Virus record (IMG/VR): IMGVR_UViG_2579778982_000025 | Span: 1 to 20,390 of that record | Length of the DNA stretch: 20,390 nt | Source: a virus | Lineage: Duplodnaviria > Heunggongvirae > Uroviricota > Caudoviricetes | Reading direction: 5' to 3' (one strand) | In this document: positions 3,701 through 14,123 of the stretch, piece after piece | Layout of the letters: each line of letters opens with the position of its first letter | Numbering within the stretch: position 1 is the stretch's first letter | Made by a program: the position numbers and the translations under genes | The notes under the pieces: generated by a model | Seen by the model: the letters and a program-made list of their open reading frames with translations, nothing else | Told to the model about the DNA's origin: nothing | The model's database searches: none

Positions 3701-4765
3701 TTACACCTGTGCGACGTTATACCATGTGCCATTGATGTATTTTTGTATTGGCCTGAAGATGGCTTCATCATCGCCATCTACTTCACCAATGATTCTTAAT
3801 CCGGTAATTGCGTGTCCGGCTTTTTCATAACGACCACCACGCGCCATCAATTGAACAACACGTGTGCCAAGTCGGACATCTCTCACATAGCGTGAGTCAA
3901 AATTGCCATAATTGTCGGGAATAACTTGCGCACCACAAAGCCAGTTACCGTTATTATCCATGTACGCCTGACCATCGGTGCCATTGGCTGTCCTTGAGTT
4001 ATTAATCATGTAGATGCCAAATTGCTTGTTCCCCAGTCCACCTATCATGAACTTTCGGTCGGCGTGATTCTGGCGAAGTAACGCCTGAGCGCTATCAGTG
4101 TTAACTATATTTTTCCCAAAGATAGCGTTGTTATCGCGCATCTGAATCCACATACCATTACTGCTGTTAATAGCAAAACGGTCTGAAAGTGTCTCCCCTG
4201 AAACATTAAGACCACGCCCCATCGAAACAGCGCCAGTAGCGTTATTAATCCATAATGGCCTTAATCCGTTATAAGTCCCCATGTTGTCACCGGAGTTTGT
4301 CAACATGAAGTATGTATCTGAACCATCATTACGAATAAAGAATCCGTAATTACCATAAGCAATACGTAGGCCGTTTGCTGATTTTGATATGACTTCGCCA
4401 TTTACAATGGCATTGACAAGAACATACAAAGCATCCCATTTAAGATTCATCAGGTCTTTTGTTGTGGTACTTTGTTTGCTTCTCCATTTGAAATATTCAT
4501 TGCCGTTGTCGCCTGTCTCAAACCACATGTATGAATCAGTGTCACCATCGGCATCATTTTTAAATCCAATCTTCGCCCAGTCAGTATTTCGAATCCAAGC
4601 AAGGATTGAGTCATTTTCAAAAGTAAGCCCACCGGACAAGGTATCGCCATTCTTTTGCACGGCGTTACCAACCCTGTTTACCGTTTCCTGCAAACCGAGG
4701 TTTTTGAGAATTGCCTCTGTGTCGTCTGGACGATATTTTTTTCCGCTTTTAGCAACAATCGCGGT
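3701..4765 (-). CDS. tail fibre protein, alternative variable C-terminal module, fused to a 24-codon remnant of a constant region
   Basis: Minus-strand frame is open from the stop at 4766-4768 down to 3701. Passes through the right crossover site with the same NLGLQETVN codons as the left module. Only 24 codons (TAIVAKSGKKYRPDDTEAILKNLG) lie outside the site. C-terminus ...IQKYINGTWYNVAQV. The ORF-track start at 4693 is a TTG inside the crossover site. Confidence 0.7.
   Translation of the reverse strand, partial: TAIVAKSGKKYRPDDTEAILKNLGLQETVNRVGNAVQKNGDTLSGGLTFENDSILAWIRNTDWAKIGFKNDADGDTDSYMWFETGDNGNEYFKWRSKQSTTTKDLMNLKWDALYVLVNAIVNGEVISKSANGLRIAYGNYGFFIRNDGSDTYFMLTNSGDNMGTYNGLRPLWINNATGAVSMGRGLNVSGETLSDRFAINSSNGMWIQMRDNNAIFGKNIVNTDSAQALLRQNHADRKFMIGGLGNKQFGIYMINNSRTANGTDGQAYMDNNGNWLCGAQVIPDNYGNFDSRYVRDVRLGTRVVQLMARGGRYEKAGHAITGLRIIGEVDGDDEAIFRPIQKYINGTWYNVAQV
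4685..4710. repeat. right inversion crossover site (inverted partner of 1635-1660)
   Basis: Plus strand ttcctgcaaaccgaggtttttgagaa; reverse complement aligns to the left site with 3 mismatches. Confidence 0.8.
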
Positions 4766-4774
4766 TTAGAAAGT

Positions 4775-5329
4775 ATGCAATATGGTTATGCGAGGGTGTC
4801 AACTTTTGACCAGAATTTGGAATTACAACTGGAGGCGCTCAGGAGTTCAGGATGTGACCGGATTTTTGAAGATAAAATATCCGGTGCTAAATCAAAACGA
4901 CCAGGACTTGATAAGCTACTGAAGGTGTTACGTCCGGGCGATACGGTTATTGTCTGGAAGCTGGACCGAATGGGGCGTTCTCTGATTCATCTTGTTGATT
5001 TACTTAACCATTTTTTATCAAACAACATTGAGTTTATTTCGATTACGGAAGGGATAAAAATTAGCACTTCAATTGGCCGCTTTGCCTACACGATGCTGAG
5101 TGCAGTCGCAGAGATGGAGCGGGAAAATATGATTGAAAGAACGCGTGCAGGATTGGCGGTGGCAAGGGCTAACGGCAGGATAGGAGGACGCCGCTCAAAG
5201 CTGGCACCAGAGCAATGGGAACAGATCGGAAGGCTTATTGCGAATGGTGTTTCACGTAAGCGGATAGCGATTATCTTCGATGTTACCTTATCCACGCTTT
5301 ACCGCAGGTTTCCGGCTGGGAATCATTGA
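4775..5329 (+). CDS. serine recombinase (invertase/resolvase family), invertase 2
   Basis: MQYGYARVSTFDQNLELQLEAL...VIVWKLDRMGRS...AVAEMERENMIERT...GGRRSKL...STLYRRFPAG, 184 aa. ATG at 4775; the ORF-track 4655 start is an unsupported N-terminal extension. Candidate promoter TTGCCT (4711-4716) - N17 - TATTTT abuts the right crossover site. Clearly divergent in sequence from invertase 1. Confidence 0.8.
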   Translation: MQYGYARVSTFDQNLELQLEALRSSGCDRIFEDKISGAKSKRPGLDKLLKVLRPGDTVIVWKLDRMGRSLIHLVDLLNHFLSNNIEFISITEGIKISTSIGRFAYTMLSAVAEMERENMIERTRAGLAVARANGRIGGRRSKLAPEQWEQIGRLIANGVSRKRIAIIFDVTLSTLYRRFPAGNH

Positions 5330-5473: not shown

Positions 5474-5511
5474 TTATGATTGTGGGTGTCTGGTTGGAAA
5501 CTGACCAGATA

Positions 5512-5630
5512 TGGAAACAAAAAGCCCGCAGATAAATCTGCGGGCTTCTTGCGACATCCACGGAAAACCAACAACAACAATCCATGGGCGCCTCGACAAC
5601 TCCCATTATACGTTGGTTTTCCGTGGACGC
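5512..5630 (-). ncRNA. candidate CopA-like antisense RNA of the repA leader (IncFII-type copy-number control)
   Basis: Two hairpins in the repA leader. A long stem-loop has a 15-bp stem ccacggaaaaccaac (5558-5572) / gttggttttccgtgg (5612-5626) and a ~39-nt loop. On the minus strand it is followed by aagcccgcaga-ttta-tctgcgggctt (5522-5547) and then a T-run (complement of 5509-5520), a rho-independent terminator oriented for minus-strand transcription. The RNA ends are not mapped. Confidence 0.45.
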
Positions 5631-5642
5631 AAGAGCGAACAT

Positions 5643-6491
5643 ATGGATAGACCAATGCCGTCTCTACGTTCCGCTTACGTTTGTAATTTGTCGCCGGAGT
5701 TCCAGCCTCCAAAGCACCATACGCACAAGCTGCCGCTGGTGTTATCTGATGCTTTACAGCGCATTAATGGGCGTGATCTTACGTGTGAGGTTGCGTTCTA
5801 CGTTAATCAACCGTCAGAGCGGAAGCGCCGGATAAACGAGCATCGTCGTCGGGCGATTAATGCTGTGATCGCTGCGATTTTGCACCATGTAAACATCATT
5901 TCTAAGCGGGTTCTGGCTAGTGCTGAGGCGTTGGCTGATTTTTGCGGCCTGTCTACCGTATCCGAAGCTGGGAACAAGTCTATAACGCGCTGTACAAGGG
6001 CGTTGTCGCAACTGAAAGCGTTAGGGTTTATTGATTATGAACGTCGCTGGGATCGGGTGAATAAACAGTATTGGCCAGCGAAAATAGAGATTCGTGATCA
6101 ACTGCTGGAAACCGTTGGTATTACTGAACAAGCATGGAGACGTGCGGTTAGCCAGAAACTTAATTACTTCAATGCGAAGAATAGCGAACGGCTTAAAAAA
6201 GCGATAACGGAGGCTGATTATAAGCGTATTGTTATTCAGGAGCAGATGGAGAATGTATGGCGTCAGAGGAAGACGGCCAGAGAGATAAAGGCAAAACAGA
6301 AAGCAGCGGAGAGAGCTGCGCGTCTTGTTCGGGAAAAGGGAGAGGCCGAACTTCGTCATCAAATCACTAGAGAGGTTAGCCAGGAATTTGCTGATGGCAT
6401 GTATCCTGGAGCTGACCTTGCATATTTACGATCCCTCGTTGAGCAGCGTTATAACAGGTTAAGAAAGACCTGGAAATCACTCCAACATTAA
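5643..6491 (+). CDS. repA: plasmid replication initiator RepA (IncFII RepA1-like)
   Basis: ...GNKSITRCTRALSQLKALGFIDYERRWD... resembles the R100/R1 RepA1 motif (..KLSITRATRALTFLSELGLITYQ..), with an Arg/Lys-rich C-terminal half. Preceded by antisense-RNA-like hairpins and followed by a DnaA box plus AT-rich region. Start at ATG 5643 (MDRPMPSLRS...) is preferred because the ORF-track start at 5511 lies inside the antisense terminator hairpin. An IncFII-type leader peptide may exist in another frame ending at 5648-5650, but I cannot place its start. Confidence 0.75.
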   Translation: MDRPMPSLRSAYVCNLSPEFQPPKHHTHKLPLVLSDALQRINGRDLTCEVAFYVNQPSERKRRINEHRRRAINAVIAAILHHVNIISKRVLASAEALADFCGLSTVSEAGNKSITRCTRALSQLKALGFIDYERRWDRVNKQYWPAKIEIRDQLLETVGITEQAWRRAVSQKLNYFNAKNSERLKKAITEADYKRIVIQEQMENVWRQRKTAREIKAKQKAAERAARLVREKGEAELRHQITREVSQEFADGMYPGADLAYLRSLVEQRYNRLRKTWKSLQH

Positions 6492-6599
6492 CCCACCTTA
6501 ATGATGAATCCGGTTTTACCGGAGGATTATCTACGTCGCAATAAAATATCTGTTCAAAAAACAAGCTAAATTAATTTTCTCTAAACCTGAACACAGCAA

Positions 6600-6740
6600 A
6601 AATATCGCCTTCACAGGCATCGGCTAATAAAGTTATCCACAGTTTTGATATGTATATGCAAATGGTTTTTTATAATAGATGCACTAAACAAATAAATGCA
6701 AAATCACTTTCTTTTATTAAGACTTTCTTTATTTAACTTA
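6600..6740. other. putative replication origin (DnaA box plus AT-rich unwinding region)
   Basis: Perfect DnaA box TTATCCACA at 6633-6641, ~140 bp downstream of repA, followed by ~100 bp of very AT-rich sequence (6642-6740). Matches the repA-then-oriR layout of IncFII replicons. Confidence 0.5.
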
Positions 6741-7134
6741 CGCAGGCTTTGCCTGTGAATATGTTCGCCCTTGCAGCGAGCTAAAGCTCGCGCCGGTTCG
6801 AGTCGCTACGCTCAAATATACCTCCTCCGGCACTTGCCGGAGGCATGGAGCAGCCTGATCATCCTTTTCGAAACGGCGCGTTTCGAACTATACAAAATCA
6901 ATTTATATAAGGCCGAAATGAGGCCTACGGCCGGGCTTTGCAGGAGGAAGGAGCGAGCCTTATCGATAAACGTCGATAAATACGCACACAGTAGCCATCA
7001 GAACGCGATAAAACGTAAGAAACATCATTTCCTATTAGACATAGAAAACTTGTCTTATACGCAATGTAGTAAATTTCTATTGCCACATAGGAAAAGATTT
7101 CCTACCATCGTAGATATAATAAATGGAGATGGTT

Positions 7135-7422
7135 ATGGATAAAGATACTGTTTTAAAAATGTTGAATCCGGCTTGTTTAAAAAAAGCGGATGAATGGGAA
7201 TCTCCTACATGTGGAGAAGTTCGGGCAGTCATTGGCCTGACCGGAATGAGCGGCTCGCAGTTGGCCAAAAAACTAGGCTTAAAAGATAGTCGCAATGTTC
7301 GCAACTGGCAGATGTTAAAGGAGTCCACATCCAGATCCAGCATTCCGTATGCAGCCTGGGCGCTGCTGTGTTACTTCGCTGGGTTAGGGTTAATCTTCAT
7401 TGATAACAAAACAGATGTTTGA
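7135..7422 (+). CDS. hypothetical protein with putative HTH motif and hydrophobic C-terminus
   Basis: ATG 7135 preceded by GGAG (7125-7128). 95 aa, MDKDTVLKMLNPACLKKADEWESPTCGEVRAVIGLTGMSGSQLAKKLGL... ending in IPYAAWALLCYFAGLGLIFI. No family recognised. Confidence 0.5.
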   Translation: MDKDTVLKMLNPACLKKADEWESPTCGEVRAVIGLTGMSGSQLAKKLGLKDSRNVRNWQMLKESTSRSSIPYAAWALLCYFAGLGLIFIDNKTDV

Positions 7423-7945: not shown

Positions 7946-7953
7946 GATTGAGC

Positions 7954-8301
7954 ATGTGGACGGTACTTTTTAGCCAGCGATTTGACGACTGGCTAAATGA
8001 GCAAGAAGACGCTCTTCAGGAAAAGGTTTTGGCTGATTTGAAAAAGCTACAGGTTTACGGACCTGAGTTACCCAGGCCATATGCCGATACCGTAAAAGGT
8101 TCTCGGTACAAAAATATGAAAGAGCTTCGCGTTCAGTTTTCTGGCCGTCCGATAAGAGCCTTTTATGCGTTCGATCCGATTCGCCGGGCCATCGTTCTTT
8201 GTGCAGGAGACAAAAGTAACGATAAACGGTTTTATGAAAAACTGGTGCGTATAGCTGAGGATGAGTTTGCAGCACATCTGAACACACTGGAGAGCAAGTA
8301 A
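7954..8301 (+). CDS. higB: type II toxin, RelE/ParE superfamily (HigB-like, phage Gp49-type addiction-module killer)
   Basis: MWTVLFSQRFDDWLNEQEDALQEKVLADLKKLQVYGPELPRPYADTVKGSRYKNMKELRVQFSGRPIRAFYAFDPIRRAIVLCAGDKSNDKRFYEKL.... Toxin-first order. Stop TAA overlaps the ATG of the downstream HTH gene by 1 nt. The ORF-track start 7948 is a TTG; ATG 7954 has the RBS. Confidence 0.7.
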   Translation: MWTVLFSQRFDDWLNEQEDALQEKVLADLKKLQVYGPELPRPYADTVKGSRYKNMKELRVQFSGRPIRAFYAFDPIRRAIVLCAGDKSNDKRFYEKLVRIAEDEFAAHLNTLESK

Positions 8302-8600
8302 TGAGAACATTAGATGAGGTGATTGCCAGCCGTTCACCTGAAAGCCAGGCGCGAATTAAAGAAATGGCAGATGAGATGATTCTTGAGGTCGGCTTGCAGA
8401 TGATGCGTGAAGAACTCCAGTTATCACAAAAACAGGTTGCTGAGGCGATGGGTATAAGCCAGCCAGCAGTAACAAAGCTGGAGCAGCGCGGAAATGATTT
8501 AAAGCTGGCGACGTTAAAACGTTACGTTGAAGCTATGGGAGGCAAATTAAGCCTGGATGTTGAGCTTCCCACAGGAAAGCGAGTAGCGTTCCATGTCTAA
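8301..8600 (+). CDS. higA: type II antitoxin, XRE-family HTH (HigA-like)
   Basis: 99 aa with central HTH (LSQKQVAEAMGISQPAVTKLEQ). Translationally coupled to the upstream toxin gene. Confidence 0.7.
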   Translation: MRTLDEVIASRSPESQARIKEMADEMILEVGLQMMREELQLSQKQVAEAMGISQPAVTKLEQRGNDLKLATLKRYVEAMGGKLSLDVELPTGKRVAFHV

Positions 8601-12356: not shown

Positions 12357-12640
12357 TTTGCACCTCCCATAACTACTTTGGTTACGAGGGAGATTTTTGC
12401 GTCAGAAACAGCGTTATCGTTGCTGGCGATGCGCATAGCTTCGCGCTCGATGATTTCAGCCAGGCGGAATTTATCGGCGTATGAGGCTTTCTTGAGAAGG
12501 ATCTTTACGAGGTTGACGTAATAGTCATGGGGTAAGTTTGTCATGATGATAGTTCCAGTTTTGATATTGGAATAATCACCACCGCTGACGCCAATCAGTG
12601 AGGTGGTGAGACGTACAGGGTTGGCGTAACCGGTCATCAT
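12353..12640 (-). CDS. hypothetical protein
   Basis: Stop overlaps the start of the antirepressor-like gene in an ATGA arrangement, suggesting translational coupling. Start ambiguous between 12640 and an internal ATG (MTNLPHD...). Confidence 0.4.
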   Translation of the reverse strand: MMTGYANPVRLTTSLIGVSGGDYSNIKTGTIIMTNLPHDYYVNLVKILLKKASYADKFRLAEIIEREAMRIASNDNAVSDAKISLVTKVVMGGAK

Positions 12641-12844
12641 GATACCCGGCGAGCCTTACGGCTCCCCCGCACGCCCCACCATAATTCGGGTGTAGCTGTG
12701 CTTTACGCATAAAAAAACCGCTAACGCGGTATGCGCCATGATGATTATCGGGACGCCAATCCCGACCGTAGATTTTGCTACGGCTCGGAAAGTGTCCACC
12801 AATGGCGCATTTATGTCAATACAGCGGGATTTTAACAGACTAAA

Positions 12845-13739: not shown

Positions 13740-13971
13740 GTAGGTTACTGATTTTGTGAAAATAAACTGTTTTTTTCGTTTAATTTCTTTCCTATTACTA
13801 ATCTTAAAATAATCGTAAAATACCTGTGGACCTTCCCGCCGATTCGCACCCGGGCACCGACTTTAGGGGAGGATTTCCTGTTGCCGTACATGCAAGCACA
13901 AGCAGCCGTGCTTGCTCTCGCGTTGTTTTCGTCGGTGGGGATGTCGTGAAACGGCCTGTAAGGGCCACACA

Positions 13972-14094
13972 ATGAAAAAATACTACATGTGTATTTTTAT
14001 CGTTGTTACTGGAGCTTTGTTTACGCCACATGGGGAGGGTTGGAAGATTACTGATAACGCTCTGAATGTGACGATAAACATTAGCAGCAAGTAG
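13972..14094 (+). CDS. small hydrophobic peptide (40 aa), candidate small membrane protein or type I toxin
   Basis: MKKYYMCIFIVVTGALFTPHGEGWKITDNALNVTINISSK. RBS AGGG 7 nt upstream. Strong terminator immediately downstream. Confidence 0.4.
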   Translation: MKKYYMCIFIVVTGALFTPHGEGWKITDNALNVTINISSK

Positions 14095-14099
14095 CGATT

Positions 14100-14123
14100 A
14101 GGCCCCTTCGGGGGCCTTTTTTA
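14100..14123 (+). terminator. rho-independent terminator
   Basis: aggcccc-ttcg-ggggcct followed by tttttta. Confidence 0.7.

Follow-up and report, generated by a model that had tools for sequence, protein, structure and literature searches.

Probable primase-only priming zone beside the IncFII-type origin of a phage-plasmid

The 20,390-nt caudovirus sequence IMGVR_UViG_2579778982_000025 (positions 1–20,390 of that IMG/VR record; hereafter the window) contains, downstream of the IncFII-family initiator gene repA, a cluster of short hairpins that we traced through related replicons. By analogy with known origins, we conclude that positions 6741–6947 probably form a single-strand priming zone with primase-only starts, on the right flank of an IncFII-type origin of replication (oriR). 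A preliminary description of the window had placed five inverted repeats in 6743–6935, just past the AT-rich region of an origin, and had read them as single-strand initiation signals of the primosome-assembly type. Inspection of the sequence found all five repeats at these coordinates, and their position is as described (repA ends at 6491, a DnaA box follows at 6633–6641, and the G+C content drops and then rises). The reading itself survives in kind, with conserved and covarying hairpins, wobble pairs on the minus strand and a match to a known primase start box (Box 2), but not in type: the detected signal belongs with the primase-only (G4) kind and is not a site of primosome assembly (PriA, n').

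The complementary-strand origin (oric) of phage G4 is defined by its use of primase and SSB, the protein that binds single-stranded DNA, only, with a start at the T of a CTG and three stem-loops 5' of it (PMC6783573). Box 2 of the window (CCTCCTGCAAAGCC, or GGCTTTGCAGGAGG when read on the other strand; 6934–6947, minus strand, CTG at 6941–6943) resembles such a G-site-type primase start box by alignment, motif and hidden Markov model (HMM), and was first seen as a conserved motif at the right edge of the hairpin region when subfamilies were aligned. When the oric of G4 and alpha3 were locally aligned, without bias, with the minus strand of the window, the best match fell at 6934–6947 (p ~0.01 and 0.003, respectively; CCTCCTGCAAAGCC in the window is aligned with CCTACTGCAAAGCC in G4), and the same alignment with the plus strand gave p > 0.5. 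Only one site in the 20-kb window, Box 2, exactly matches the consensus of the G4, alpha3 and St-1 boxes, CCTMCTGCWAAGCC, compared with ~6e-4 exact matches expected by chance in a rough calculation. By blastn, the G4 oric matched only G4-like phages in the phage collection.

Pattern scans of viral, genome and metagenome collections yielded ~165 distinct family contexts, after GC-rich chance matches (about half of the pattern matches in GTDB) had been removed by their upstream context. The strict Box 2 motif lies +80 to +520 from block B, the conserved hairpin described below, in 64 of 165 family contexts, with only 17 matches elsewhere in 1.27 Mb; its position and orientation relative to repA are invariant in the family. 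An HMM built from 63 plasmid copies of Box 2, when run against whole microvirus genomes, gave the oric primer start as its top match in each of St-1 (E = 0.006), alpha3 (E = 0.008) and G4 (E = 0.17, at 3996–4011; the G4 record annotates the primer at 3970–3997). The same model matches the window at 6926–6954 with E = 3e-4. From its sequence, we regard Box 2 as a putative G-site-type start, at which the predicted primer would begin with pppAG at 6942 and extend rightward, away from repA, with the sequence AGGAGGAAGG.

The hairpin cluster to the left of Box 2 is, as far as sequence comparison can tell, a conserved and functional-looking part of the IncFII-type origin, lying 250–450 bp downstream of IncFII-family repA, past the DnaA box and the AT-rich stretch. 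Salmonella plasmids found by distant blastn are 75% identical to the window across 6631–6945, and Pantoea and Serratia IncFII plasmids match 6763–6816 only. A four-way alignment with replicons whose RepA is 86%, 17% and 33% identical to that of the window revealed a strongly conserved block around hairpin 2, in which the Salmonella sequence has a compensatory stem (GCGGAC/GTCCGC). Conservation in related replicons, the lack of which the preliminary description named among its refuting conditions, is seen, with compensatory changes in hairpins 1–3. Across 49 non-redundant origins (minus-strand alignment A3, RNAalifold consensus), 90.6% of the cells of these three hairpins pair, versus 84.3% in shuffles (reached in 0 of 500) and 34–43% with slid partners, and 86 cells carry double changes, a count matched by none of 500 shuffles. 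In hairpin 3, five of the eight pairs show double changes. Among the non-Watson-Crick cells of hairpins 1–3, 98 are G.T on the minus strand versus 22 on the plus strand (46 versus 9 in hairpin 3), and because of this excess the data favour the minus strand as the one that folds.

The individual hairpins differ in how widely they are kept. Hairpin 1 (CAGGC-TTT-GCCTG; minus strand, core 6743–6755, extending to 6741–6757) is supported by folds and compensatory change, with CAGAC/GTCTG in Salmonella relatives and other complementary stems in further lineages; its counterpart in R1/R100 is CTGTCC-TGT-GGACAG, at the right end of the minimal oriR. Its 3' arm overlaps a reverse DnaA-box-like sequence (TGTGAATAT, 6754–6762, minus strand, 8/9 match) just before block B, and perfect reverse DnaA boxes occupy the same place in three other loci, L089, L004 and L026 (TGTGGATAA, TGTGGAAAA and TGTGCATAA, respectively). 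Hairpin 2 (GCGAGC-TAAA-GCTCGC, 6776–6791, minus strand) is the upper stem of block B. Between block B and hairpin 3, a small and variable stem-loop on the minus strand may form hairpin 2b (GAGTCGCTACGCTC, 6800–6813), which is replaced by small stem-loops of other sequence in other lineages, for example GGCGC-AA-GCGCC in Serratia. Hairpin 3 (CCTCCGGC-ACTT-GCCGGAGG, minus strand), supported by folds and covariation, spans 6824–6843 with an 8-bp stem (6824–6831 with 6836–6843), longer than the 6825–6842 first listed.

For the last two hairpins we assign no strand. Hairpin 4 (TTCGAAACG-GCG-CGTTTCGAA, 6867–6887) is specific to the phage-plasmid subfamily: L003 and L020 retain it, and L089 has a variant with compensatory change. 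Part of the flank of block B seems to be repeated in inverted form in the left arm and loop of this hairpin, within a 13-nt inverted repeat (CGCGCCGGTTCGA/TCGAAACGGCGCG; 6789–6801 with 6868–6880, 92% complementary) that could allow an alternative long-range pairing. Hairpin 5 (GGCC-TAC-GGCC, 6922–6932) adjoins Box 2, on the 3' side of it in the minus strand; its stem is kept, with a loop change, in L003 and L020, and the upstream GGCC at 6911–6914 is not conserved in relatives. As single-stranded DNA, the 203 nt at 6738–6940 fold with −41.3 kcal/mol on the minus strand (shuffles −30.8 ± 3.1, z −3.38, 0 of 200 as good) and with −41.9 kcal/mol on the plus strand (z −3.33, 1 of 200 shuffles as good). 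The minus-strand centroid fold retains hairpins 1–4, and hairpin 5 is present in the minimum-energy fold.

Block B (6765–6801, minus strand) is an extended imperfect hairpin of 37 nt, defined by the RNAalifold consensus and pair counts. Its upper stem of 6 bp (6776–6781 with 6786–6791) is followed by a bulged position, 6775 (T on the minus strand), and by the lower pairs 6774–6792, 6773–6793, 6770–6796, 6767–6799, 6766–6800 and 6765–6801, so that the bulged T is part of a CTG held between the upper stem and a G-C/C-G lower stem. The two free stem positions of hairpin 2 occur in five combinations, and in 61 of 63 members they are complementary. When the four bases around the bulge were left free in the scan, 94 of the 98 genuine contexts still had CTG, and covariation was seen in the pair across the bulge (G-C 90, T-A 2, A-T 1). 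Flanks and internal loops of the hairpin are conserved in sequence as well as in pairing, and the block B HMM matches the window with E = 1e-13. A tRNA-like T-arm reading of GGTTCGAGTC (6796–6805) was rejected, as no complementary stem is present.

The 67-nt block that includes this hairpin occurs in 2,556 PLSDB records, mostly from Klebsiella and also from Enterobacter, Yersinia, Citrobacter, Serratia and Pantoea; the Yersinia carriers are the 68–70 kb virulence plasmids. Block B was found at 100 plasmid places (99 records) and at no chromosomal place in 5,426 complete E. coli genomes, which refutes the alternative of a repetitive extragenic palindromic (REP)-like element raised in the preliminary description. 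At ~135 loci with enough upstream DNA, it follows an IncFII-family repA at a distance of 277–486 bp and in the same orientation, except in L059/L148 (835 bp) and L238, where the tblastn match overlaps block B. The RepA lineages near it range from 26% to 100% identity to the RepA of the window, and block B is ~90% identical among replicons whose RepA proteins share 17–37% identity. An extra sample, picked by RepA similarity alone, contained a canonical copy in Rouxiella, diverged copies in Enterobacter kobei and Serratia entomophila (CAG and bulged hairpin kept, with new complementary stems) and a decayed copy in Sodalis; none was found in Buchnera pLeu or in an R100-type Shigella plasmid of that sample.

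Since block B is conserved across very different initiators, a host factor rather than RepA would be expected to read it, and a conserved host factor, with primase as the leading candidate, may recognise it. Its sequence contains a candidate second primase start, Box 1 (CTGCAAGGGC, 6767–6776, minus strand, CTG at 6774–6776), which abuts hairpin 2 and lies nearer the origin than Box 2. There are two occurrences of the core pattern CTGCWARGSC in the window, Box 2 and Box 1, and both are on the minus strand. On that strand, hairpins 3, 2b and 2 are placed immediately 5' of the Box 1 CTG, as in the G4 oric arrangement. The predicted primer would start at 6775–6776 with the sequence AGCGAGCUAAAGC. 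Box 2 is nevertheless the better supported start of the two. A G-site start is an already known type, and we found block B described nowhere in the accessible literature: openly accessible work on the R1 G site, on single-strand initiation (ssi) signals and on IncFII origins gave no description of block B or of the G-site sequence, and block B is unannotated in every record examined.

Under the mechanism that we propose, RepA and DnaA would open the AT-rich core (6642–6740), by analogy with R1, and a single DnaB helicase would travel rightward, away from repA. The bottom (minus) strand, as leading-strand template, would be exposed and SSB-coated, with no opposing fork to prime it. The GC-rich minus-strand hairpins (1, block B/2, 3, and perhaps 4 and 5) would resist SSB, and DnaG primase could then start a primer at 5'-CTG-3' without a primosome, as at the G4 complementary-strand origin. 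R1 replication proceeds away from repA. By analogy, we infer that the minus strand is the leading-strand template, because R1 replication is unidirectional, in a theta mode that depends on RepA and DnaA (PMC5883639). The R1 oriR also begins with the same DnaA box as that at 6633–6641 of the window (PMC5883639). Replication of the window replicon would then likewise run rightward, and the zone would be active in priming.

The preliminary description had suggested a comparison with the priming signals of IncF plasmids, and the outcome is mixed: the Box 2 motif is present in R100, but the AAGCGG hairpins, Ter sites and GC-rich cluster of R100-type plasmids are not shared. Our R100-type reference is L007 (pC15-1a), one of the matches to an R100 origin query, which matched at least 5,000 PLSDB records at 90–100% identity; R100 RepA, as query among viral contigs, led to one locus. 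R100 carries Box 2 as GGTCTGGCAGGG (CAG at L007 2351–2353), 364 bp right of the minimal oriR, where the window has GGCTTTGCAGGAGG. Masai and Arai reportedly described, in 1989, the G site of R1/R100 as a primase-dependent leading-strand start downstream of oriR; for R1 it reportedly lies 380–400 bp right of oriR, which fits the R100 Box 2 at 364 bp. We infer that Box 2 corresponds to the R1/R100 G site. Two other candidates for the R100 G site were rejected: L007 2195–2330 has no conserved CTG on the template strand, and the CAG at L007 2386 is not conserved in relatives, so that Box 2 at 2342–2357 fits better.

Box 2 of the window shares with the R1/R100 G site its strand, its orientation to repA and its place to the right of an IncFII oriR. 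Unlike in R100, it is only ~190 bp from hairpin 1, no two Ter sites and AAGCGG hairpins intervene between oriR and Box 2, and no three GC-rich stem-loops follow it. Most family members have two inverted Ter sites, AAGCGG hairpins and a highly conserved hairpin cluster downstream; in most relatives, Ter-like sites TAGTTACAACA and TGTTGTAACTA (L007 2031–2043 and 2171–2181) bracket an AAGCGG hairpin between oriR and Box 2. Neither the window nor its nearest relatives have Ter sites, AAGCGG hairpins or the R100-type GC-rich hairpin cluster: GTTGTAAC occurs nowhere in the window, and blastn and nhmmer with an R100-family profile found no homologue there of the L007 hairpin clusters 2098–2330 and 2386–2480. 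Of this R100 region, the window shares only the ~15-nt Box 2 motif.

R100-type origins keep hairpin 1 (within the 188-bp minimal oriR) and hairpin 3, the latter being the only hairpin of the set that R100 retains besides the hairpin 1 counterpart. They lack ~57 nt holding block B and hairpin 2b (L007 1989–2060 versus alignment A3). Plasmids whose RepA is 75–79% identical to that of R100 carry block B. Because close and distant IncFII relatives carry block B, the model plasmids R1 and R100 appear to have lost it, and thus to have a reduced origin flank. The complementary distribution expected if block B replaced the R100 G site was not found, and this idea was rejected, as most block B replicons also have R100-type sites. 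Going further, block B might be an unrecognised single-stranded DNA element of the IncFII superfamily, a bulged-T hairpin that a conserved replication factor of the host, DnaG in the simplest case, would read; it would have served as the ancestral leading-strand start beside the unwinding region and been lost in the R1/R100 lineage, which relies on the distal G site alone. We offer this only as a tentative possibility, with the balance of probability against it. If it is true, the textbook picture of IncFII initiation describes a derived, reduced origin, and leading-strand initiation would differ in the Klebsiella IncFII(K) plasmids, which dominate in the clinic, and in the Yersinia pCD1/pYV plasmids.

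Several observations weigh against a priming zone as we have drawn it. For Box 2, the template 5' side (6944–7060) is poorly structured (fold of 6925–7060, z −0.9, versus z −4.4 for G4) and is not conserved in the nearest relatives (Salmonella), and Box 2 consequently lacks the three stem-loops that define the G4 oric. The only clear stem there in the 6925–7060 fold, an AT-rich hairpin on the minus strand (TTATCGA-TAAACG-TCGATAA, 6960–6979), is of uncertain relevance and is not conserved in L003 or L020. The best-matching start lies at the edge of the interval given in the preliminary description, and the hairpins listed in that description are 3' of it on the template. The Box 2 sequences in the HMM were gathered with a regular expression written after the similarity to G4 had been seen, the covariation and wobble cells are not phylogenetically independent, and the equation of Box 2 with the R1/R100 G site depends on what Masai and Arai reportedly described in 1989. 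As for Box 1, it matches the start-box core at only 8 of 10 bases, the T of its CTG is bulged between paired bases, four genuine contexts (L145, L163, L185 and L212; GCAGCAAGGGCG) carry A in place of this T, and the block B profile matches no phage oric. Finally, block B is dispensable or redundant, because R1 and R100 replicate without it and most relatives carry it together with R100-type downstream sites.

Four other explanations of the hairpins have to be weighed against this. AAGCGG marks n' sites, and IncFII relatives including R100 have plus-strand AAGCGG hairpins between oriR and Box 2; this, and the compatibility of PriA recognition with stable hairpins next to an origin, would suit primosome assembly sites of the phiX174 type (n', PriA-dependent), loading DnaB and primase for the lagging strand. 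The window, however, has neither AAGCGG nor CCGCTT in 6492–7120 and no homologue of the R100-type hairpin cluster (nhmmer, blastn), and a lagging-strand site should fold on the plus strand, whereas the wobbles favour the minus strand by 98 to 22, so we consider PriA sites very improbable. An RNA read leftward into the origin, either a regulatory or priming transcript or terminators shielding the origin, would also agree with the wobbles, since minus-strand changes compatible with G.U fit RNA no less than DNA. Minus-strand hairpin 3 scores as a weak terminator (CCTCCGGCAAGTGCCGGAGG followed by AGGTATATTT), and is the only one of the hairpins to pass a loose terminator scan (two sites in the region versus 0.8 expected). 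Yet the other hairpins lack T-runs, 6400–7200 contains no leftward promoter-like site, the neighbouring genes on the right read rightward, and the DNA right of the module is unrelated between family branches, leaving no conserved promoter position. Nor did Rfam 15 support a structured non-coding RNA, which the preliminary description had named as an alternative: no family scored above chance in 6450–7150, the best score being 19.8 bits against a gathering threshold of 40 (a small nucleolar RNA model). A leftward RNA is therefore improbable in our judgement.

The remaining two explanations concern proteins that would bind the hairpins. Origin recognition rather than priming, by way of duplex symmetric sites for RepA, DnaA or another protein, or of cruciforms, would account for the DnaA-box-like sequence that overlaps hairpin 1, for the location of its R1 counterpart inside the minimal oriR and for the conservation of block B flanks and internal loops beyond pairing. 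It is at odds with stems that change and yet stay complementary (five variants of hairpin 2, many of hairpins 1 and 3) and with the wobble bias towards one strand, which is meaningless for duplex DNA; conservation of block B across RepA proteins that are 17–37% identical makes a RepA site in particular unlikely. We judge duplex sites to be about as improbable as a leftward RNA. Only a little more probable, and still unlikely, is the idea that a host factor other than primase reads block B and the other hairpins on the minus strand once it is exposed, for example in DnaA-DnaB-DnaC loading (ABC primosome) or as an unknown hairpin binder. A reverse DnaA box 3–12 nt from block B in every lineage, the resemblance of a bulged-T hairpin with conserved internal loops to a protein recognition element, and the T-to-A change in four contexts, which argues against a strict need for CTG, all speak for it. 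Against it, the DnaA-box-like sequence lies only partly in the hairpin 1 stem in most members and has 1–2 mismatches, DnaB loaded on the minus strand would give a leftward fork, in conflict with unidirectional replication away from repA, and we identified no candidate factor. Priming by primase alone at Box 2, with Box 1 as a second candidate, is thus the reading that we prefer.

The origin setting is that of a plasmid replicon carried by a phage. The 621 bases around the hairpin cluster are 97–99% identical in 59 plasmids of ~48 kb, of which 58 records are from Escherichia and which include the 48.5-kb plasmid of E. coli ATCC 25922, and they also match three Yersinia phages (vB_YpM_39, 41 and 44); from these matches, the window derives from a ~48-kb E. 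coli phage-plasmid. The repA gene (5511–6491, plus strand), taken from the open reading frame (ORF) list, encodes an IncFII-family replication initiator and is labelled 'plasmid replication initiator RepA' at the matching position in NZ_CP009073. Between repA and the next gene (7135), the matching plasmid and phage records examined have no annotation. A coding reading of ORF 6771–7142 (123 aa, TTG start) was rejected, the ORF being unannotated in all records examined and the region aligning with relatives only via many gaps. The left end of the oriR homologue is a perfect DnaA box (TTATCCACA, 6633–6641, plus strand), identified by sequence and aligning with the DnaA boxes of related origins. 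The AT-rich core that follows (6642–6740; strand not assigned) was delimited by composition, with G+C at 0.32–0.37 over ~6500–6740 and then up to 0.47–0.51, and would hold probable RepA sites and the unwinding region. Three ATGCA(A/C) repeats in this core (6656–6662, 6679–6684 and 6696–6703) are probably initiator binding sites, because they recur across origins of the same RepA clade (Salmonella, Serratia, Rouxiella, S. entomophila, Sodalis and even Buchnera pLeu).

The surroundings of the origin showed some further features. Directly upstream of repA, a tail-fibre-like ORF (3701–4693, minus strand) adjoins a recombinase-family gene (4775–5329, plus strand; labelled DNA-invertase Hin in a Yersinia phage record), and 3701–5329 looks like a host-range segment capable of inversion that borders the plasmid replicon. 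To the right of the zone, a 12-nt inverted repeat (ATCATTTCCTAT/ATAGGAAAAGAT; 7024–7035 and 7087–7098) brackets a promoter-like site (7080–7108), the only sigma-70-like promoter ahead of the gene at 7135; the right arm of the repeat and TTTCCTACCATCG are kept in Salmonella relatives and have an operator-like appearance. At 1 kb right of the origin (7948–8600), a toxin gene of the RelE/ParE family is accompanied by an antitoxin-like gene of the helix-turn-helix type (HigB2-like in the phage record). Rfam matches at gathering score elsewhere in the window were C4 antisense RNA, isrK and ryfA (12599–12686, minus; 12711–12784, minus; and 13826–14122, plus, respectively). C4 RNA is linked to P1/P7 immunity, and the match suggests a P1/P7-like immunity region.

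Where theta replication is unidirectional and uses a single helicase, the leading strand has to be started independently of the helicase, and to our knowledge R1 is the sole case in which the leading-strand start of such replicons has been worked out. A primase start box is common, nearly letter for letter, to G4/alpha3-type phages and the whole IncFII superfamily, and it gives precise predicted start coordinates for a phage-plasmid origin (6942 and, for Box 1, 6775). The ~40 nt of block B are more strongly conserved than the initiator proteins, and thousands of clinical plasmids carry them, among these Klebsiella IncFII(K) and the Yersinia virulence plasmids; they are absent from R1/R100. If block B is a priming or helicase-loading signal, it would be a host-dependent weak point common to many resistance and virulence plasmids, and a useful marker for annotating IncFII-type origins.

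Among known priming systems, the oric of G4, alpha3 and St-1 come closest. Box 2 matches their 14-nt primer-start box exactly, the predicted Box 2 primer (AGGAGGAAGG) resembles the alpha3 primer (AGGAGGGAAGG), and at Box 1 stem-loops are followed by CTG on the template, as in these phages. The window differs from them in its hairpin sequences, which are unrelated, and in its setting, a double-stranded theta replicon rather than a single-stranded phage genome; strong stem-loops of the G4 kind are missing on the template 5' side of Box 2, and the Box 1 CTG, unlike that of a phage oric, abuts the stem with its T bulged, within a block B profile that has no match to the phage sites. The A site of the ABC primosome is said to be a DnaA-box hairpin, as in ssiA of R6K (Masai, Nomura and Arai, 1990). 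Like R6K ssiA, hairpin 1 carries a DnaA-box-like sequence beside the unwinding region, but this box is imperfect (8/9 in the window, 7/9 in most relatives) and spans the loop and one arm instead of lying inside the stem. Finally, ssiA and ssiB of RSF1010 are described as 40-nt hairpins recognised by the plasmid primase RepB' (PMC8567376). The window resembles them in its compact conserved hairpins within the origin, where those of RSF1010 act as strand-specific priming signals (PMC8567376). It differs from RSF1010 in that no primase is encoded near the origin in IncFII-type replicons and in that block B is common to replicons with very different Rep proteins.

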